A stretch of DNA of 47,322 bases from an uncultured Bacilli bacterium. Its GTDB lineage: Bacteria > Bacillota_I > Bacilli_A > RF39 > UBA660. A program made the translations under genes and the position numbers. How positions within the stretch are numbered: the first letter of the stretch is position 1; each line of letters begins with the position of its first letter. Shown piece after piece: positions 1 through 32,207 of this stretch. A model generated the notes under the pieces. It had not been told where the DNA came from. It worked only from the letters and a program-made list of their open reading frames with translations, and did no database searches. The DNA lies in assembly GCA_947587115.1 (NCBI GenBank), contig CANPXY010000001.1, positions 1-47,322 of the forward strand, in the 5' to 3' direction.

Positions 1-1078
1 TCATACTATTTGAAAAAACTCCATATTCTATAGATTTTACACTTGAGGGAATTATTACACTAGTTATGTTATTATCTGCAAAAGCCTGATTTCCTATCGA
101 AGTGACACTTGAGGGAATTGTAGTACTTGTTAATTCATTCCCATAAAAAGCTCTTTGGGCTATTTCGGTTACTCCTTCTGGTATTACTACACTCGTGATA
201 CCTAAACCATTGTTATGAAACGAAAAAGGAAAGCCACCGTTTGAGCAATAATTATTACTTTGGCATTTTTCATTAGCAGAATCAGAATATCCTATACTTT
301 TTACAGCAGTCCCTTTAATTGTATTCGGAATAACAACATCTGTAATAATCTCTCCCGCTGGACTTTGTTCATCTGTATTAGGACGCAAATTGGTTGAATC
401 AATATCTCCTAGATATGTCCCACACAAATATGCAATAATTGTTCCTGAACTTTCATCAAATTCAAAACAATCTTCTGGCGTTGGGATTAACTGTTTTCCT
501 ACTACCTTTATCTTTCCATTGAATACTTTTCCAGCAACATCTTCTGGATTTGTGACTTCACTATCTATCCATAGTCTTAAATCATAACTATAATTTTCAC
601 TTGGGTATATAATTCCGGTATCTAATACCCTTTGTTCTCCTTGCTTGGTTTCAGACAATAATTTATGTAGATTAATGTAAGGTCCAGTGCTATAATCAAT
701 TTTTCCAATCATTGAAATATTTATTCCGTCCTTGCTTAACCCAAGTCTAATTATTTCATCTTTTAATTTTGGCTTTTCTACATCTACATCTTCTAGATAA
801 ATCGTATATCTGGATGGTACATTTCCGTTATTTGTTAACGTAAAGTGATAGGGATCCTTACTTAGTCCTACCTCATCACTCATCGGTAAGGCTTTTCCCA
901 TAGTGATACCATTACTCTCTTTATCATCCAACTCTAATGAGAGATTACCAGCCTTAAGCGTATTACCGTTTTTTCCATTTAAAGTTAGATGTAACCAAGC
1001 ATAACTTACTCCTACTAATACTATTAGTCCTATCGTTATTGGAAGTATCCACGCCAATATCCGTTTCCTTTTTTCCAC
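1..1078 (-). CDS. BspA-type leucine-rich-repeat surface protein, N-terminal 359 codons (3' end runs off the window). Paralog of 21008..22312.
   Basis: Absent from the ORF track because there is no stop in the window. My translation from GTG at 1078 reads VEKRKRILAWILPITIGLIVLVGVSYAWLHLTLNGKNGNTLKAGNLSLELDD...PEDCFEFDESSGTIIAYLCG...VVIPEGVTEIAQRAFYGNELTSTTIPSSVTSIGNQAFADNNITSVIIPSSVKSIEYGVFSNSM. It has the same TM anchor, N-module and LRR_5-like repeats as the 434-aa ORF. The start codon choice (GTG) is tentative. Confidence 0.8.
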   Translation of the reverse strand, partial: MEKRKRILAWILPITIGLIVLVGVSYAWLHLTLNGKNGNTLKAGNLSLELDDKESNGITMGKALPMSDEVGLSKDPYHFTLTNNGNVPSRYTIYLEDVDVEKPKLKDEIIRLGLSKDGINISMIGKIDYSTGPYINLHKLLSETKQGEQRVLDTGIIYPSENYSYDLRLWIDSEVTNPEDVAGKVFNGKIKVVGKQLIPTPEDCFEFDESSGTIIAYLCGTYLGDIDSTNLRPNTDEQSPAGEIITDVVIPNTIKGTAVKSIGYSDSANEKCQSNNYCSNGGFPFSFHNNGLGITSVVIPEGVTEIAQRAFYGNELTSTTIPSSVTSIGNQAFADNNITSVIIPSSVKSIEYGVFSNSM

Positions 1079-1100
1079 TTTTTCACTACCTTTCCCTTTT

Positions 1101-1132
1101 ATTATAAAAATACAACCCCCCCCCCCTGTCAA
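1101..1132 (-). promoter_or_regulatory. Sigma-A-type promoter with a homopolymer in the spacer: TTGACA-G11-ttgtatttt-TATAAT (20-nt spacer)
   Basis: On the minus strand, -35 TTGACA is + 1127..1132 and -10 TATAAT is + 1101..1106. The spacer is 1107..1126. It lies 22 nt upstream of the GTG at 1078. Confidence 0.6.
1116..1126 (-). repeat. Homopolymer G11 (C11 on the + strand) inside the promoter spacer
   Basis: Counted directly: tacaa-ccccccccccc-tgtcaa. Confidence 0.95.
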
Positions 1133-1184: not shown

Positions 1185-3260
1185 TCAAAAAGGTGGATAA
1201 AGTTCAAAGTATTTATCGCTGACGCGCTTGGTAATGGTCCTCGTAACCATACTACTGTAACTACTTCGACCGTTGGGATTGTTGACATCAGGACTCATCA
1301 CAACGATACTCATCTTAGGATTTTCACTAGGGGCATAACCGACAAAGGCCGTACTGATCGTCTCGGTATCGATGATGCCATCACCATCTTGATCCATAAA
1401 ACTTTCACTCGTACCAGTTTTCCCACTCGGATCATAACGATTGTCTATATAATTGTGCCCAATTCCATAACTGGCCATAGTTACCGCATGAAATCCTTCT
1501 TTGACCCGATTTAAAAATCGTTCCTCCGTATCAATTTTATTTAATTCGACTGGTTGCACTTGCTCAAGTAAATCTCCTAGTGCACTTCCCTCTGTCGCCG
1601 CATGAATTTCTTTTAATAGATGAGGTTGCAATCTTGATCCACCATTGGCAATAGTCGAAACATATTGTGAAAGTTGAATTGGTGTATAAGTATCATATTG
1701 CCCCATTGAAAAATCAAGCAAATGTCCTGGTAAAGTCGAGGTCCCCTTGTATCCTAAACTTTCTAAAGGCAAATCAATCCCTGTTTTGACTCCTAAACCA
1801 AACTGCTGATACGTATTGCGATAAATCGTAAAAGCTTCTGGATTAATTTTTAGTGGCTGATTATATTGATATACAGCTCCCCCAACCTTCATTGCAATCT
1901 TAAATTGATAGATGTTCGACGACAGTGCCAATGCCTGAATATCGTTGATCCTTCCCAGCGTCTTCCAAGAACATTTTATTGGCGTCGATAGAATCTTAAT
2001 ACATTCATCTTGTTGATATTCACCAATTTGAATGACCCCCGTATTGTATCCCACCAAAATGGAAGCGCCTTTGACGACACTCCCGACAGTCATTGGCGAA
2101 GTGACAACGCCAGGTGTATAATCATAGAATTCTTTTTGTCCATTCTTAGTAAGTAACTGTTTCCCACTCATCGCTAGAATTTCTCCCGTATTAGGATCTT
2201 GAATGACGACAAAACTGCGATTATAAAACTCAGTATTTGGAGTCAATTTGGCCATAGCAATTTCTTCTTTTAATATTTCTTCCACGGCCTGTTGGAGATG
2301 AATATCGATCGTAAGAACGAGATCTTGACCACGCTCTTCTTCTTCCACCAACTGAAGCTTATAACGATTTACAACCTGATATTTCGCTTTTTTCCCACGT
2401 AAAAGTTCTTCATATTGTTGTTCTAGATAACTGATACCTACACGATCATTTAAAGAATAACCTTTTTTCAAATACATATCGACCAGTTCCTCAGGAATTC
2501 CCTGATTTTGATTGCTCACCGTTCCTAAAATTGTTCGAAAAGTATCTCCATATAAATAGATCCGCTCCCAATCCAGCTTTACATGAAATCCACCCAATGA
2601 AGAATTGTGTTCAGCTACATAAGCATATTCTTCTTCACTGACTGAGTCGCTCTTAATAATCTTTTCGTCATAAGAAAAACCTCGATTCATCAAGTAATAA
2701 AGATACGCCGTCTTCCTCTCTTCTTCTTGATAGATACTTAAATCTTCCTCCGTGATTCGATCGATTTTCAAATTTTCAATATCGCTCTCTGAAAGCCTTC
2801 GTTCCTCAAGTTTTCGCCACTCTTCTTCGCTGATCTTGGCATTTCCTTCTTTTGGATGTTCTGCCAACCAAAATTCTTTAAGATTCCGTAGAGCCAATTT
2901 AGAAGTATCTAAGGTAAGATGGGGACTGACTTGATAGGCAAGCTCCAATTCCTCTTCGGTCGTGCGATCTTTATCTTTCTGATAATAGATCGTCTTCATG
3001 CCCTTATTATCGACCAACAGATTATAATTCCGATCATAAATTCTCCCTCTTGGGGCACTGTTTCCTTCCACGATCACATGAGCAATTTGATCCAATTTTT
3101 TTTGATAGACTTCTCTTTGAATATAGATCATGTCATAAAGACGGAAAAAAAGTATCAAAAAAAGTCCTACAACCAAAATAGTCAAAAACAAAAAACGTCG
3201 CGATGATTGTTCGGCTTCTTTATTTTTAGCGATTAAAGTGCTTTGGCTCTTACTTTTCAT
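1185..3260 (-). CDS. Class B penicillin-binding protein (PBP2/PBP2B-type transpeptidase)
   Basis: N-terminal TM anchor; SxxK (SVVK), SxN (SSN) and KTG (KTGTS) motifs in the correct order. The track start at 3272 is a TTG. The ATG at 3260 (MKSKSQ) has a GGTGA SD upstream. Confidence 0.9.
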   Translation of the reverse strand: MKSKSQSTLIAKNKEAEQSSRRFLFLTILVVGLFLILFFRLYDMIYIQREVYQKKLDQIAHVIVEGNSAPRGRIYDRNYNLLVDNKGMKTIYYQKDKDRTTEEELELAYQVSPHLTLDTSKLALRNLKEFWLAEHPKEGNAKISEEEWRKLEERRLSESDIENLKIDRITEEDLSIYQEEERKTAYLYYLMNRGFSYDEKIIKSDSVSEEEYAYVAEHNSSLGGFHVKLDWERIYLYGDTFRTILGTVSNQNQGIPEELVDMYLKKGYSLNDRVGISYLEQQYEELLRGKKAKYQVVNRYKLQLVEEEERGQDLVLTIDIHLQQAVEEILKEEIAMAKLTPNTEFYNRSFVVIQDPNTGEILAMSGKQLLTKNGQKEFYDYTPGVVTSPMTVGSVVKGASILVGYNTGVIQIGEYQQDECIKILSTPIKCSWKTLGRINDIQALALSSNIYQFKIAMKVGGAVYQYNQPLKINPEAFTIYRNTYQQFGLGVKTGIDLPLESLGYKGTSTLPGHLLDFSMGQYDTYTPIQLSQYVSTIANGGSRLQPHLLKEIHAATEGSALGDLLEQVQPVELNKIDTEERFLNRVKEGFHAVTMASYGIGHNYIDNRYDPSGKTGTSESFMDQDGDGIIDTETISTAFVGYAPSENPKMSIVVMSPDVNNPNGRSSYSSMVTRTITKRVSDKYFELYPPF

Positions 3261-3328
3261 GCTTCTCACCAATAATAGTTTGGCTCATATTTAAAAAGTT
3301 ATTGCATATATTTTAACGGAGGAAAAGA

Positions 3329-3586: not shown

Positions 3587-4485
3587 TGAACTTGTTTTTT
3601 CATGATTTCTTCTTGTAATTTCGGATCAAAAGTGCGTGCTCTGATCATTTCAATCTCTTCTTTATAAGGAGGATACAAGCGATCAATATAAGGGGTCTCT
3701 AAAATCTTGGGAATATCTTGAAGTTTCGGATGTTCAATAATTTTTAAAAGTGCTTCAAAACCGATGGCCCCAAAACCAATATTTTCATGACGATCTTTGT
3801 GAGAAGCTTGCGGATTTTTACTATCGTTGATATGAATGCAATGAACATATGACAATCCGACAATTCGATCAAATTCATCCAATAGATGATCAAAATCTTT
3901 TACATCATAACCTGCATCATGCAAATGACACGTATCAAGACACACCCCAATACGGCTCTGCTCATGAACGCCAGCAATGATTCGATGAAGTTCTTCAAAT
4001 CTACTGCCAATCTCGCTCCCTTTACCAGCCATCGTCTCTAGCAAGATCATGACGTTCGTATCTTTTAAAATTTGATTGAGCCCATCAATAATCTGTTCAA
4101 TTCCAAGATCGATTCCACTGCCAACATGACTTCCTGGATGTAAGACCATATACTGAATTCCTAATTGTTCACAGCGCTTTAATTCTTCTTTAAGAAAACG
4201 AATAGAAAATTGATGTTTTTCTTCATCGACATTTGCCAAGTTGATAATATAAGGTGCATGCACAATGACCGTTTCAGGATCGATTCCCTGCCGCCTCATT
4301 TCTTCTCGTGCAGCTTTTGTAATTTCTAAATCGATCGGATACCGTAGGGTATTCTGTGGCGCTCCTGTATAAAACATAAAAGTCGTCGATTGATATTGCA
4401 GTGCTTCCTTTAAACTACCTAACAGTTGATCCTCTCGACGAAAAGATACATGCGATCCAATCAATAATTTCTCTCTTTTTGCCAT
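3583..4485 (-). CDS. nfo: Endonuclease IV (AP endonuclease family 2)
   Basis: 300 aa. Typical Nfo segments: LLIGSHVS, VIVHAPYIINLA, YMVLHPGSH, LLETMAGKG, VCLDTCHLHDAGYD, IHINDSKN. Confidence 0.93.
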   Translation of the reverse strand: MAKREKLLIGSHVSFRREDQLLGSLKEALQYQSTTFMFYTGAPQNTLRYPIDLEITKAAREEMRRQGIDPETVIVHAPYIINLANVDEEKHQFSIRFLKEELKRCEQLGIQYMVLHPGSHVGSGIDLGIEQIIDGLNQILKDTNVMILLETMAGKGSEIGSRFEELHRIIAGVHEQSRIGVCLDTCHLHDAGYDVKDFDHLLDEFDRIVGLSYVHCIHINDSKNPQASHKDRHENIGFGAIGFEALLKIIEHPKLQDIPKILETPYIDRLYPPYKEEIEMIRARTFDPKLQEEIMKKQVH

Positions 4486-4530: not shown

Positions 4531-5049
4531 TTATGAACTTGTACCAAGAGTACAAGTCGTCTCACCAACTTTTGGCGTTGCAAGAATTTGACTGCTCAAA
4601 TCTGAACTACGACGTTTTACATCGTTACGAACCATAGCATTCTCTTCCGTCTGAGCAATACCATTGTTCTCTGAATCAATACCCGCAAAATAATAAGTAT
4701 AGCGATCTTGTCCATTATCTTGTGGAACATTGCTAATTACAACATAAGCTTTTCCCTCAACCCAAGGTTTGTCATAGACACTCTTTGTTGAACTTCCTTT
4801 TTCAAGTTCAATTCCATTGATTGGAACATAGACACAAGCATTCTGCCCTGGCAATTCATAATCTCCTTGAAGAGCATAATAACGTACTTGTGTAATATAA
4901 TTTCTAGCCGTTGAAATAAATGCGTCTTTCTTTGCACCTTCGATAATTCCCGTCATCGCAGGAATAGCAATCAATAATAACACACCTAAAATGATGATAA
5001 CTGCCAATAACTCAATTAATGTAAATCCTTTTTTATTTAATCTTCTCAC
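4531..5049 (-). CDS. Type IV pilin / pseudopilin-like protein (prepilin N-terminal cleavage/methylation motif)
   Basis: N-terminus MRRLNKKGFTLIELLAVIIILGVLLLIAIP matches the class III signal (G/FTLIE plus a hydrophobic helix). Confidence 0.85.
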   Translation of the reverse strand: MRRLNKKGFTLIELLAVIIILGVLLLIAIPAMTGIIEGAKKDAFISTARNYITQVRYYALQGDYELPGQNACVYVPINGIELEKGSSTKSVYDKPWVEGKAYVVISNVPQDNGQDRYTYYFAGIDSENNGIAQTEENAMVRNDVKRRSSDLSSQILATPKVGETTCTLGTSS

Positions 5050-5125: not shown

Positions 5126-5638
5126 TTAGCACTTATATTGGACGATTCCAAGACCGGACAACGTACTTCCCACATCGGTTCCATACTGGGTCGTAAGATT
5201 CATGATATGATTGCTGGCCGTCGTTTTATTTAACTCGTCCTGAGAAATCAATTCCAAACCTTGCGGATCATTCTTAGTAGTCTCTCTAAGTGTAACATAA
5301 TATTGATACCGATTACCGGAACGTGTAATAGCTACAAAAGATTGATCACGAATATAATCTCCACCCTCAGGACCCGTCTCGATATCAGAATTTCCAAGGC
5401 AACTCAAACTAAAAACAATAACATTTCCCGTGGTGGGTTTACGAATGGTACTATCAGAATTCAGCTTATATTCCGCAAGCGCAATCATCTGTTTCGCATG
5501 TTGAATATACGTATTCTTCTTATTCTTATCAAGAATTCCCATCACATTCGGAATTGCCACCAACATAATGATACTAAGAATAGCGAATACTCCCAACAAC
5601 TCAACTAAAGTAAAACCTTTTTGATTCAAACGTTTCAT
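5126..5638 (-). CDS. Type IV pilin / pseudopilin-like protein, paralog of 4531..5049
   Basis: MKRLNQKGFTLVELLGVFAILSIIMLVAIP. I prefer the ATG at 5638 over the track start at 5665 because it gives the usual short leader before G/FTLVE. Confidence 0.85.
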   Translation of the reverse strand: MKRLNQKGFTLVELLGVFAILSIIMLVAIPNVMGILDKNKKNTYIQHAKQMIALAEYKLNSDSTIRKPTTGNVIVFSLSCLGNSDIETGPEGGDYIRDQSFVAITRSGNRYQYYVTLRETTKNDPQGLELISQDELNKTTASNHIMNLTTQYGTDVGSTLSGLGIVQYKC

Positions 5639-5703
5639 CTTATCACCACTATTATTATACCGCAATCTTCTGCTTTGGAAAAGAGAAAATAAAAAGATTT
5701 CCC

Positions 5704-9356: not shown

Positions 9357-10025
9357 TTATTTTTTTAATTCTTCTTCGATCCATTTAATTTCCCGACGAA
9401 GGAGATAATGACGACGCCAATATTTTTTAGGAAGCAATCGTTGATTGATCTTCTTTTTCTCGAGTTCACGATCGAAATAGACCTCAAATAATTTTGGACG
9501 TTCTTGTAACAGAAGTGGTCCAAAATAGATCTCGCGCTTCGAATATTTTTGCCTACCCTTTTCAAATTTCAAAAGATGATAGAGGATTTTGTGATCTTCC
9601 ACCAATTCCTCTTTCGTCAAATGATATCCTAAATGAGAGGCAATACTTCGAACAAGTGGAACATCGCTGTTCGGTGACAAAATTAACGTTTTTACACCAG
9701 CCAACAAATTTCGCTGGTTTTTTAATATGCCATAGATCGTTCGACCACCCATACCGGCAATGACGACCGTATCCGTCTGTGGAGTGATCGCCGCTAACCC
9801 ATTGCCTTCTTTAATTTCAATTTGATCCGTCATTTTCCAACTGGAGACATTTTCTCTTGCATGTTCCAAAGGTCCTTTGGCAATATCGGACGCAATCGGA
9901 TGAATATCTTGATCTCTTTGAATGAGATAAATGTCCAAAAGGGCATGATCACATCCGACATCGAGCACCCGACTGTGCTTAGGCACCAAGTCACCGACTG
10001 CTTGAATGCGCTTACTGATCTTCAT
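9357..10025 (-). CDS. trmK: tRNA (adenine22-N1)-methyltransferase
   Basis: VLDVGCDHALLDIYL...IASDIAKGPLEHARENV...IKEGNGL matches the TrmK/YqfN pattern. It lies immediately downstream of sigA, as in Bacilli. Confidence 0.85.
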   Translation of the reverse strand: MKISKRIQAVGDLVPKHSRVLDVGCDHALLDIYLIQRDQDIHPIASDIAKGPLEHARENVSSWKMTDQIEIKEGNGLAAITPQTDTVVIAGMGGRTIYGILKNQRNLLAGVKTLILSPNSDVPLVRSIASHLGYHLTKEELVEDHKILYHLLKFEKGRQKYSKREIYFGPLLLQERPKLFEVYFDRELEKKKINQRLLPKKYWRRHYLLRREIKWIEEELKK

Positions 10026-11113
10026 TAATCGGTCAAGAAATCCTTAAGTTTTCGAGAACGAGAAGGATGACGCAACTTGCGAAGTGCTTTGGCTTCAATT
10101 TGACGAATACGCTCTCTTGTAACACCAAAAATTTGGCCAACTTCTTCCAGTGTCCGACATTGTCCATCATCTAACCCAAAGCGAAGACGTAACACCCGCT
10201 CTTCACGATCGGTCAAAGTAAGCAAAACACCAGAAAGCTCTTCTTTTAACATCTCCACTGTCGCATACTCTTCCGGACTCATCGTTCGCTCATCACGAAT
10301 GAAATCGCCTAGATGGCTGTCCTCTTCCTCTCCGATCGGAGTCTCAAGTGAGACTGGATCTTGACTGATCTTATAGACCTCGCGAACTTTTTCGACCGAG
10401 ATATTAAGTTTTTTAGCAATTTCTTCATCGGTTGGCTCCCGATTTAACTCTTGGGTCAACTGACGTTGCACACGAGCAAGCTTGTTGATCGTCTCAACCA
10501 TATGAACAGGTACACGAATGGTACGTGCCTGATCGGCAATCGCTCTAGTGATGGCTTGACGAATCCACCAAGTCGCATAAGTCGAAAATTTATAACCCTT
10601 CGTTGGATCAAATTTATCGACAGCCTTCATCAGACCAATATTCCCTTCCTGAATCAAATCTAAGAACAACATGCCACGTCCTACATAACGTTTCGCAATC
10701 GATACGACCAAACGCAAATTCGATTCTGCAAGCATCCGTTTCGCATATTCGTCCCCTTGTTCCGCAAGACGCGCATACTCAAACTCTTCATCAGAAGTAA
10801 GCAAATTGATCCGTCCAATTTCTTTTAGATACATACGAACAGGATCGTTGATTTTGACATCTTTCGTAAGCGTTAGGTCCTCTACGTTTCCACCCGTTGG
10901 ATCCTCTTCATCATCCGCAACATTTCCATCTTCGGATACGATTTCAATCTGTTGCTCTACAAAACTATTATATAGATCATCTAGTGTATCACTATCAATT
11001 TCAAGCCCCTTTAATTCATCTGCCAACTGTTCATAAGTGATGAATCCTTGCTCCTTACCTAAAGCAATTAATTTACTTTTACGCTCTTCAAGCGTCTTAA
11101 TTTCTTCGACCAT
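10025..11113 (-). CDS. sigA: Primary RNA polymerase sigma factor (sigma-70/SigA)
   Basis: Regions 1.2-4.2 are recognisable: [19 protein letters not shown]-type, [79 protein letters not shown]. Confidence 0.97.
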
Positions 11114-22339: not shown

Positions 22340-22371
22340 ATTATAATTCACACCCCCCCCCCGTCTGTCAA
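22340..22371 (-). promoter_or_regulatory. Sigma-A-type promoter with a homopolymer in the spacer: TTGACA-gac-G10-tgtgaat-TATAAT (20-nt spacer)
   Basis: On the minus strand, -35 is + 22366..22371 and -10 is + 22340..22345. It lies 27 nt upstream of ATG 22312. Confidence 0.6.
22353..22362 (-). repeat. Homopolymer G10 (C10 on the + strand) inside the promoter spacer
   Basis: Counted directly: ca-cccccccccc-gtctgtcaa. Confidence 0.95.
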
Positions 22372-22437: not shown

Positions 22438-22514
22438 TGGTGACCTGTATGGGGTTTGAACCCATGAATACCACCTTGAGAGGGTGGCGTGTTGAACCAC
22501 TTCACCAACAGGCC
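22438..22514 (-). tRNA. tRNA-Glu (anticodon CUC), CCA encoded
   Basis: Minus strand reads GGCCTGTTGGTGAAGTGGTTCAACACGCCACCCTCTCAAGGTGGTATTCATGGGTTCAAACCCCATACAGGTCACCA. It folds by hand into a cloverleaf: acceptor GGCCTGT/ACAGGTC, anticodon stem CCACC/GGTGG with loop CUCUCAA, and T arm ATGGG-TTCAAAC-CCCAT. It closely resembles Bacillus tRNA-Glu. Confidence 0.9.
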
Positions 22515-22673: not shown

Positions 22674-23666
22674 TCAATAGACCCCATCTAATATATCCAT
22701 AAATGCTTGATAGCGATATAGATAAGCATACTTAGAAAGCAAACGCACTTCTTCACACAGTGGAGCATGAATTCGTCGTTCCACCTTTTGAAAGATTTCG
22801 TCCATATCGATTTTTTGACGAAGAACAGAATTACAATAATCGTATACTTCATCATCTTCGATCAAAGCTTCCAAAGTGTCCTTCCATAAAGACTCAAATC
22901 CGCCCTCGCTAGAAGAGACCCACTTGCCAATGCGCGGTTGGGCGATCGAAGTAGAAAGTTTTAGATTTTGATAATCTCCTAGCAACAAACGTACCGTTGT
23001 AATATCATTATCTAAAAGTAAAGCAGCTTCACTATCATAATTGGGACTAAGTTCCCAATGATGAGAGCTCTCGATAAAAGAGAAATTTTCAACATGCTTA
23101 TCGGTTTCCAACATCAACAGCGAAAAAGCCAACCGCTTCTTATATTCCACGAGCAAGCGCTCTACCTCTTCTTTAGAAATTCCTTGTTGCGTAAAATATA
23201 ACTTTAACTTTTGAATCGTATAATCATAGTCTGTGGCATCGGCAAAGTTTCCTTGATCTTCATCACCGATCATCGAACGCAAAGAGTGAAGATGCTCTAG
23301 AGGCGGATCGATCATCGCGACCGACAAGACACCATGCGTCAGTTTTCCTTGTTGGTCAAGAAGCTGAACAAGATCATAATGGGCCATCGAAACTCCCAAA
23401 GATTTCCCTATTTCTTCGACGATGAGTTCCGAATAAATTCCATAGTTTGCTTCCGTATCCAACTGAATCTCGCCCTTTATAAGAACGAGATCATCTCCAA
23501 AACGAACCCAGTTTTTAATACGATTTTGATTGCCCATCGGCTCTTTGGAGCGATCAGTTAAAACAAGATCGGTCAAAGAAAGATCTAAAAACCCTTCTTG
23601 GGTACGAAACGTCTCTAAGTCTTTCAACGTATATTTACATTTTTCAAAACATTCTTCTTTTACCAT
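22674..23666 (-). CDS. HipA-like kinase-domain protein (HipA_C type)
   Basis: ETDKHVENFSF...WELSPNYDSE matches the HipA catalytic loop (D-x-H-x-x-N) and the Mg-binding (a)PaYD motif. At 330 aa it is about the size of HipT-type short HipA proteins. Confidence 0.6.
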   Translation of the reverse strand: MVKEECFEKCKYTLKDLETFRTQEGFLDLSLTDLVLTDRSKEPMGNQNRIKNWVRFGDDLVLIKGEIQLDTEANYGIYSELIVEEIGKSLGVSMAHYDLVQLLDQQGKLTHGVLSVAMIDPPLEHLHSLRSMIGDEDQGNFADATDYDYTIQKLKLYFTQQGISKEEVERLLVEYKKRLAFSLLMLETDKHVENFSFIESSHHWELSPNYDSEAALLLDNDITTVRLLLGDYQNLKLSTSIAQPRIGKWVSSSEGGFESLWKDTLEALIEDDEVYDYCNSVLRQKIDMDEIFQKVERRIHAPLCEEVRLLSKYAYLYRYQAFMDILDGVY

Positions 23667-29003: not shown

Positions 29004-29161
29004 AAAACATCTCCTTGATAATTTATTATAACAAGTCCTGAAAACTTATGTCAAACAAAGGCATCATTTTCTTTTTTTTCTGTTGCATTTGTTATAGGTG
29101 TTTTTTCCCTTCTAACATAAATTAAATTGAAGACCATTGTCAAAAGAAAGAAGGGAAATGG

Positions 29162-29573: not shown

Positions 29574-30539
29574 TTATTTTAAACGCTGAATAATGATCGT
29601 GACAACTGAATTTGTAAAAGATGAGAGATTATCATCTATTTTAGGACTGTCCAAATACATGGGATAGTTTCCTAGATTGACGAGTTCAAAGACGTCATTT
29701 TCTAATACAGTCGACACAATTCCTTGTCCTGTGAACTGAACGGGAATTTGATGATTATTCCAAACGGTCGCTCCGGCATAGACAGGATCTTCGCCAACCT
29801 TTTTAAAACCTACGACAATGATATCGCGGTCTTTTACGACAACGGTATCGTTGATAGCACTTGCTTGCACTGTAAATTGAATGCGATAAATTCCTGGATG
29901 AACAAAAGTAATCGTATGGTCATTCTCGTTAAAAATAAAGTTATTTTCCCAATCCGAAATTTTGATATCGAGCGGAATACGCGCTTTGGGCTGAACTTTG
30001 ATGCCAGTTGCGCCATCGGAATCGTCATAGAATGTGACAAAGAAAGCAGCTGGAATTTCGAGTGGTCCTGGCGGTCCCTCTGGACCCGGTTCCCCTGTCT
30101 CACCTTTTTCACCACGCCAACCTGTAGGTCCAGGAGCTCCTTCTGGTCCTGGTGGCCCTGGATTTCCTTGCTCCCCTTTTGGGCCACGAATATTTCCTAC
30201 ATCTATCCATTCATTTTTGCTTTCAGACCAAACATATAAATGCTCTCCTACGAGATAAGAAGCGCCTTTTGTCTCCTCTGGATGATCTTGTTTTAAACTT
30301 TCCAAAGAATCATAAGACCCCAAGATCGTAACACCTGTTCCATCTTGTCCCCTTGGAATGACAAAGTCCAAAGTATGTAAAGATCCCTCGTGATGATCGA
30401 TGACCTGGGCTTCACTTCCCGCATCTCCCGTTTGAATTTTTCCCAAAGCGATCGTCTCTGTAGTACCAGGAGCCCCTTGTGGACCCGTCGGTCCTTGGGG
30501 AATCGTCAAATTCAGTAAAAATTGAGGCCGGTCTTTCAA
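29574..30539 (-). CDS. Collagen-like (Gly-X-Y) protein with a C-terminal BclA/C1q-like globular domain
   Basis: TTG start with an AAGGGGGA SD. Contains [10 protein letters not shown], then 14 uninterrupted triplets [41 protein letters not shown], then a beta-rich tail of about 150 aa (FVTFYDD...[10 protein letters not shown]...VFELVNLG...VVTIIIQRL). Confidence 0.85.

Positions 30540-31481: not shown

Positions 31482-32207
<726 letters not shown>

Follow-up and report, generated by a model that had tools for sequence, protein, structure and literature searches.

The window analysed here, a stretch of 47,322 nt with a G+C content of 36.9% that constitutes one entire NCBI contig, carries the 5' part of an LRR gene (gene 1) that is cut by the contig end and preceded by a promoter-like arrangement with a long homopolymer between its two hexamers (Table 1). 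Read from 1132 down to 1101 on the minus strand, the sequence is TTGACA-G11-TTGTATTTT-TATAAT with a spacer of 20 nt, while the plus strand of 1101-1132 reads ATTATAAAAATACAACCCCCCCCCCCTGTCAA. This is the layout and the spacing that had been described for these positions in an earlier observation, to which only the strand has to be added, since it had been omitted there and all elements of the feature lie on the minus strand. Inside TTGTATTTT, the letters TTTTAT can be read as a weaker alternative -10-like hexamer at 17 nt from the -35 hexamer. At the position where locus 1 has the Shine-Dalgarno-like GGTAGTGA, GGAGTGA or GGAGG is found in paralogs and orthologs. The visible part of the gene 1 product matches the Pfam family LRR_5 (PF13306) with 60.6 bits at a gathering cutoff of 27.7. 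Between the upstream gene for a penicillin-binding protein (PBP) and the -35 hexamer of locus 1 no intrinsic terminator was predicted, so that read-through from the PBP gene could express gene 1 at a basal level regardless of the tract.

A second promoter of the same design, TTGACA-GAC-G10-TGTGAAT-TATAAT, precedes a complete paralog (gene 2) elsewhere in the window. As had been stated in the original prediction, the spacer measures 20 nt at both loci although the number of non-G bases differs, with 9 at locus 1 and 10 at locus 2, and here again a weaker -10-like hexamer, AATTAT, is found at 17 nt from the -35 hexamer. The further claim that the genes behind both promoters are paralogous LRR genes also holds, as the two proteins share 44% identity (E = 2e-91) and the gene 2 product scores 86.4 bits against LRR_5, so that both lie above the gathering score of 27.7. 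The region immediately upstream of the locus-2 promoter holds a tRNA gene followed by a hairpin with a T-run, and a search against Rfam returned this tRNA as the sole match. A gene for a kinase-like protein with a HipA C-terminal domain (22674-23666) lies directly upstream of this tRNA-Glu(CTC) gene and thereby of the locus-2 promoter.

Table 1. Features of the two loci, the other perfect promoters of the window and the upstream tracts of one related MAG (window coordinates unless a relative is named; tract lengths in the window are to be read as +/-1-2, homopolymer lengths in short-read assemblies being error-prone).
Feature	Position	Strand	Evidence or remark
Gene 1, 5' part, GTG start at 1078..1076, 359 codons visible, cut by contig end	1..1078	-	LRR_5
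Region between -10 hexamer and start codon, 22 nt	1100..1079	-	Shine-Dalgarno-like GGTAGTGA at 1090..1083
-10 hexamer TATAAT, locus 1	1106..1101	-	sequence
Non-repeat part of spacer, TTGTATTTT, 9 non-G bases	1115..1107	-	sequence
Poly-G tract G11 (C11 on plus strand), upstream half of spacer	1126..1116	-	proposed slippage-prone element
-35 hexamer TTGACA, locus 1	1132..1127	-	perfect consensus; same hexamer in syntenic ortholog L067
Penicillin-binding protein gene upstream of gene 1	1185..3272	-	Transpeptidase, PBP_dimer; synteny anchor
Perfect promoter, spacer 17 nt	6559-6587		
Gene 2, complete paralog, 434 aa	21008..22312	-	LRR_5, AlphaFold model
Sister promoter, locus 2, spacer 20 nt	22371..22340	-	sequence
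-10 hexamer TATAAT, locus 2	22345..22340	-	sequence
Poly-G tract G10, locus 2	22362..22353	-	sequence
-35 hexamer TTGACA, locus 2	22371..22366	-	sequence
tRNA-Glu(CTC), then hairpin and T-run, immediately upstream of locus-2 promoter	22438..22514	-	
Perfect promoter, spacer 18 nt	29025-29054		
Poly-G tracts upstream of family paralogs in CAZJKO01	L004 2832-2840; L006 2828-2836; L005 6087-6095; L009 ~2766		~165 nt upstream of genes

Searching both strands of the 47 kb for GGGGGG returned the G11 and the G10 tract and nothing else, in line with the statement that these two are the only runs of six or more G or C in the window. On the plus strand, C runs of length 4 occur 55 times and those of length 5 occur 15 times, lengths 6-9 are absent, and lengths 10 and 11 are represented once each, whereas a first-order Markov expectation for the window amounts to 0.009 runs of at least 10 and 0.002 runs of at least 11. 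Both tracts are thus outliers in the run-length distribution, and both exceed the length of ~7-8 nt needed for slipped-strand mispairing. Perfect promoters of the form TTGACA-N14-22-TATAAT are observed four times in the window versus 0.16 expected from shuffles. The description of two tracts is accurate, and their occurrence is far beyond chance.

The window carries sigA, dnaG, ileS, murE and the genes for RNase J and the PBP, a gene content which identifies it as a chromosomal piece of a walled organism of the class Bacilli; the SigA-type sigma factor is encoded at 10025-11113. Among 5.8 billion proteins the closest relative of its IleRS is 69% identical, which implies that the collections searched contain no conspecific genome. 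The gene 2 protein forms a singleton protein cluster, a scan of metagenome contigs for the exact promoter with its flanks gave 0 matches, and a scan of genome contigs yielded only relatives with identities of 52% or less. Eight further paralogs with 36-66% identity are located on other NCBI contigs that probably belong to the same assembly as the window, whose genome apparently encodes at least 10 copies of the family.

Proteins of this family start with a basic stretch and a hydrophobic transmembrane or signal segment, after which comes an invariant SYAWLxLTLxG-like motif. Their N-domain is beta-rich and comprises ~190 aa, and in the window proteins it is followed by C-terminal BspA-type LRRs. 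Searches of Pfam and NCBIfam with the N-domain of the window proteins yielded no match, and for Peptidase_M73 (PF12389) in particular none at E up to 5; among family N-domains, 4 of 19 match Peptidase_M73 (camelysin/TasA), the best with E = 2e-6. A profile search against the PDB gave the archaeal bundling pilin AbpX as a weak match at E ~2, and a fold search with the N-domain likewise gave weak matches to donor-strand pilins and archaeal bundling pili (E ~1e-3). In the AlphaFold model of gene 2 (pLDDT 75) the C-terminal half matches BspA-type LRR cell-surface proteins by fold search. That the gene products are secreted or surface-located is a reasonable prediction from these models and matches, and the multi-copy family of surface proteins that had been postulated is supported, as a family of predicted surface proteins, by the LRR_5 assignments, the fold matches and the paralogs. 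Family ORFs are often ~180-235 aa long and then consist of the N-domain without a C-terminal head (L021-L026, L008, L011-L013, L015 and others).

The relative L067/L068 (ENA) keeps the order AP-endonuclease, DUF2624, PBP and family gene. Its intergenic region between the PBP gene and the family gene contains TTGACA-aagaaagaaaattctact-TATAAT, with a spacer of 18 nt, no tract and a distance of 23 nt to the ATG. Since TTGACA and TATAAT are kept in this syntenic ortholog, the hexamers in the window can be regarded as a genuine promoter, and by this comparison the tract is placed between the -35 and -10 elements of the predicted promoter driving the adjacent gene. In the same syntenic slot the PBPs of the window and of L067 are 80% identical versus 43% for the adjacent family genes, which indicates a much higher rate of evolution in the family gene than in the PBP gene beside it.

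An HMM was built from the N-domain, and 68 distinct upstream regions of family genes were surveyed. In 60 of the 68 the tract is absent, and the four repeat-free perfect promoters of the family (L067, L071, the second gene of L002 and the second gene of L029) all have spacers of 18 nt. Together with the 17-nt and 18-nt promoters of the window, this defines a norm of 17-18 nt, so that the spacers at both window loci are 2-3 nt too long and both loci are predicted to be weak or OFF as assembled, a prediction that builds on the established behaviour of sigma-70 promoters and on the precedents of porA and tp0126. A spacer of 17-18 nt, and with it the predicted ON state, would be reached with G8-G9 at locus 1 and with G7-G8 at locus 2. 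Owing to the weaker -10-like hexamers TTTTAT and AATTAT at 17 nt, the output could be graded rather than strictly on or off. The combinatorial ON/OFF states that the original prediction had envisaged are not what the assembly displays, as both loci were assembled at the same 20-nt spacing and fall into the same predicted weak/OFF class. Neither is the description of the second copy as independent established: the layout of promoter and 5' UTR is common family-wide and a tract could be inherited with duplication, so that the two tracts of the window may go back to one ancestral tract or to two origins.

Poly-G tracts at the corresponding position also occur in relatives. A distant family member from human-gut metagenomes, which has the same N-domain but a DUF6273-like C-terminus and adjoins tgt, has the promoter design TTGACA-T-G(n)-TTATTTA-TATAAT. 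In L074/L075/L076, three samples whose encoded protein is identical, the tract is G9, G8 and G9 with spacers of 17, 16 and 17 nt, and over 3.3 kb without SNPs it is the sole difference between them; the homologous tract of L066 is G7. In five samples with another identical ortholog (L080-L084) the lengths are G8, G7, G7, G8 and G9, and the tract is the only indel, alongside 13 SNP columns in ~2.9 kb. Since tract length partly tracks the SNP haplotypes in this second set, some of the variation lies between strains, and the pattern is compatible both with rapid switching and with a slower change at the level of strains. Length differences of this kind are what a hypermutable tract would be predicted to produce, read here from consensus assembly lengths to which some sequencing error may contribute. 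In L078/L079, an ortholog with 84% identity to the L066-type gene, the promoter is degenerate, CGGACA-18-TACAAT, with only G6, and a second tract, G8, lies ~90 nt further upstream, the tracts being located at -138 and -49 relative to the start of the gene.

Related loci amounting to 334 kb contain seven G/C runs of at least 9. Each of these reads as poly-G on the strand that encodes the family gene, and six are found between -170 and +30 nt relative to the start of a family gene. The third gene of L029 has the arrangement TTGACT-8-G10-3-TATAGT, and other relatives have G-rich spacers with interruptions (L002, tgggtaggggatacattt; L069, tgtggatggggtaactt), which suggests that tracts may be gained and then decay. 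In L010, two tandem family genes with identical 5' ends carry G9 in codons 7-9 (2989-2997 and 4446-4454) and are frameshifted in the assembled state; only G8 or G11 restores the ORF of 452 aa, which makes this a translational version of the switch. Four family paralogs of the MAG CAZJKO01 are preceded by a conserved module of ~200 nt that has a tract at its 5' edge (G9, G9, G9 and G6). After the tract, the module contains CAACTTACTAGACAAGTAAA, then a hairpin resembling a terminator (ACAGGGTAG..TATCCTGTATTTTT) and, proximally, TATACTATAAT. For three of these four paralogs, the tract is read through by a mini-ORF that has a Shine-Dalgarno sequence of its own (MKNCQE.. / MEKCQK..), and the module could represent a variant of the switch that works in an attenuation-like manner. 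In L036, an in-frame G9 (..EMGGGSN.., 793-801) is also found upstream of a family gene, within a coding sequence that is unrelated to the family.

Taking the architecture of the loci and the behaviour of homologous tracts together, we consider it likely that the G11 tract is a slipped-strand phase-variation switch in a promoter spacer, of the type known from porA and tp0126. Replication slippage would add or remove G's in the spacer of a sigma-A (sigma-70 type) promoter, and with each G gained or lost TTGACA and TATAAT would come to lie one base pair further apart or closer together. At a spacing of 17-18 nt, RNA polymerase would use the perfect-consensus promoter strongly, and at the assembled 20 nt the promoter would be weak or off. 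The gene under control would encode a fast-evolving, predicted secreted or surface protein that combines a putatively camelysin/TasA-like N-domain with BspA-type LRRs. For the window itself, we infer from the relatives and from the precedents that the tract varies in length, that its length would set the level of transcription and that the two loci would switch independently. The switch probably exists, but it belongs to an ordinary type, the mechanism itself not being new.

The same 20-nt spacing could alternatively be the outcome of decay, in that an accidental G run stretched the spacer, silenced the gene and left a frozen promoter behind which the gene drifts towards a pseudogene. The deviation of both loci from the 17-18 nt norm would be expected in that case, as would the GTG start of gene 1 and its GGTAGTGA, which has an extra T compared with the GGAGTGA of relatives, and decayed-looking interrupted spacers do exist in the family, namely those of L002 and L069 given above. 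However, the reading frames are intact over at least 359 and over 434 codons, both hexamers are still perfect, runs of 10 and 11 G's without interruption stand far outside the run lengths of the genome and are inherently unstable, and homologous tracts differ in length between otherwise identical sequences. We therefore regard a frozen promoter as unlikely.

Somewhat less probable still is a deterministic role, in which the G tract would be a protein-binding site or a rigid A-like spacer that tunes the promoter or answers a regulator. Such a role would account for the constant position of the tract close to the -35 hexamer (0, 1 or 3 nt after it) and for its constant orientation with G on the sense strand, and there is a precedent in T. 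pallidum, where a CRP homolog acts together with poly-G in tpr promoters (PMC7864442). It does not explain why the syntenic ortholog and other members of the family have unrelated 18-nt spacers, which means that there is no conserved operator, nor why homologous tracts are polymorphic in length, and the intragenic poly-G of L010 makes sense only as a frameshift switch. Two related ideas were set aside: a G-quadruplex or a role in reiterative transcription, because the tract consists of one run only and is located in a spacer that is not transcribed, and an A-form-like, physically shorter G tract with which 20 bp would behave as 18 bp, because porA and tp0126 obey the ordinary 17-nt rule.

That the tract is a sequencing or assembly artefact, arising from the poly-G known from some Illumina two-colour chemistries or from a chimeric join at a homopolymer where contigs of relatives also break (L077, L073), is very improbable, since it lies internally with perfect promoter hexamers on both sides, its 10-11 nt are below the assembly k-mer size, similar tracts are found at this position of the promoter in many assemblies obtained independently, and the PBP-to-family-gene junction is kept in an independent assembly; the conserved order of PBP, promoter and family gene in a related genome thereby agrees with the earlier argument against an artefact. 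As to the breaks themselves, L077 starts inside the promoter tract, with G8 as its first letters, and L073 starts beside the position where a locus-2-type tract would be, which points to a tendency of assemblies to break at promoter G tracts.

Beyond the phase-variable promoter spacer of the window, a broader reading is possible, which we put forward tentatively and hold to be rather doubtful as a whole: a lineage-wide poly-G contingency system in uncultured gut Bacilli, acting on an undescribed, secreted and possibly fibre-forming protein family, in which tracts were recruited repeatedly at three control points. The proteins would combine the camelysin/TasA-like N-domain with interchangeable C-termini (BspA-type LRR, DUF6273-like and others). 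The control points would be the promoter spacer, as in the window, in the L066/L074/L080 type and in L029, codons 7-9, as in L010, and an upstream leader with mini-ORF and terminator-like hairpin, as in CAZJKO01. If this were the case, commensal Firmicutes would run a surface phasome in the style of Neisseria or Treponema.

Simple-sequence phase variation has been documented mainly in pathogens and mycoplasmas, and the switches known so far from gut commensals are mostly invertible promoters. In Mycoplasma hyorhinis, each surface-lipoprotein gene of the vlp system has a poly-A tract in the spacer between its -35 and -10 elements, and the genes switch ON and OFF independently and in combination; the window differs in that the tract is poly-G, and vlp differs in its lipoprotein products and in an organism without a cell wall. 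The porin gene porA of N. meningitidis has a counterpart in opc, the promoter tract of which is poly-C instead of poly-G. In porA itself, a poly-G tract between the -35 and -10 elements controls transcription with an optimum of 17 nt (PMC7864442). Both porA and the window have a homopolymeric G tract in the spacer of a sigma-70-type promoter in front of a surface-protein gene. In contrast to porA, a single porin gene of a Gram-negative pathogen for which the dependence of expression was shown, the window comes from an uncultured gut Bacilli organism, has perfect hexamers, a multi-copy family and a spacing 2-3 nt over the optimum, and is known from its sequence alone.

Similar control has been described in T. 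pallidum, where tp0126 has poly-G between its -35 and -10 elements with an optimal spacing of 17 nt and where each of the paralogous putative surface proteins tprE/G/J/F/I/L has its own promoter poly-G, the lengths of which vary within isolates (PMC7864442). Unlike in the window, the tpr tracts are mostly located just upstream of the transcription start and not in the spacer of a clean consensus promoter. The two protein families have no relationship to each other, and variation was measured in T. pallidum by fragment analysis and reporters while that of the window tracts is inferred. The family most alike in its products is the BspA-like family of Ca. Mycoplasma girerdii, in which simple-sequence repeats were found; in the consensus genome, many of its members are in the OFF state, and metagenomic reads revealed the variation (PMC5476646). 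The features shared with the window are surface proteins with BspA-type LRRs that form a large family, a position in the Bacilli/Mollicutes lineage and control by simple repeats; in girerdii, however, these are mostly dinucleotides in coding sequences that act by frameshift, as opposed to a homopolymer in a promoter spacer with a transcriptional effect, and the N-terminal domain is different. A Gram-positive gut commensal with a poly-G tract is Bifidobacterium breve, in which replication slippage at poly-G reportedly controls a sortase-dependent pilus (PMC9187656). The likeness lies in poly-G slippage and in a surface structure, whereas B. breve is an actinobacterium and its tract appears to act on pilus gene clusters and not on promoter spacing. 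A literature search found no report of the family described here, nor of promoter switches based on poly-G in gut Firmicutes or in uncultured gut Bacilli.

The slipped-strand promoter switch proposed for the window is of value mainly because it allows simple-sequence phase variation to be tested directly in Firmicutes that live as gut commensals. If it operates as outlined, gut populations that are identical at the strain level would differ in surface adhesins, antigens or phage receptors, a heterogeneity which consensus MAG sequences would hide, assemblies sometimes breaking at the tract, and which could be measured directly from existing metagenomic reads.

Elsewhere in the window, two adjacent small genes (4531-5049 and 5126-5665) carry the prepilin N_methyl motif and can hence be classed as type IV pilin- or pseudopilin-like. 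In addition, two proteins with collagen triple-helix repeats are encoded at 29574-30539 and 31482-32192, and one of these collagen-repeat genes holds a 9/18-nt tandem array of ~15-31 copies (31760-32039), potentially a length-variable surface feature.
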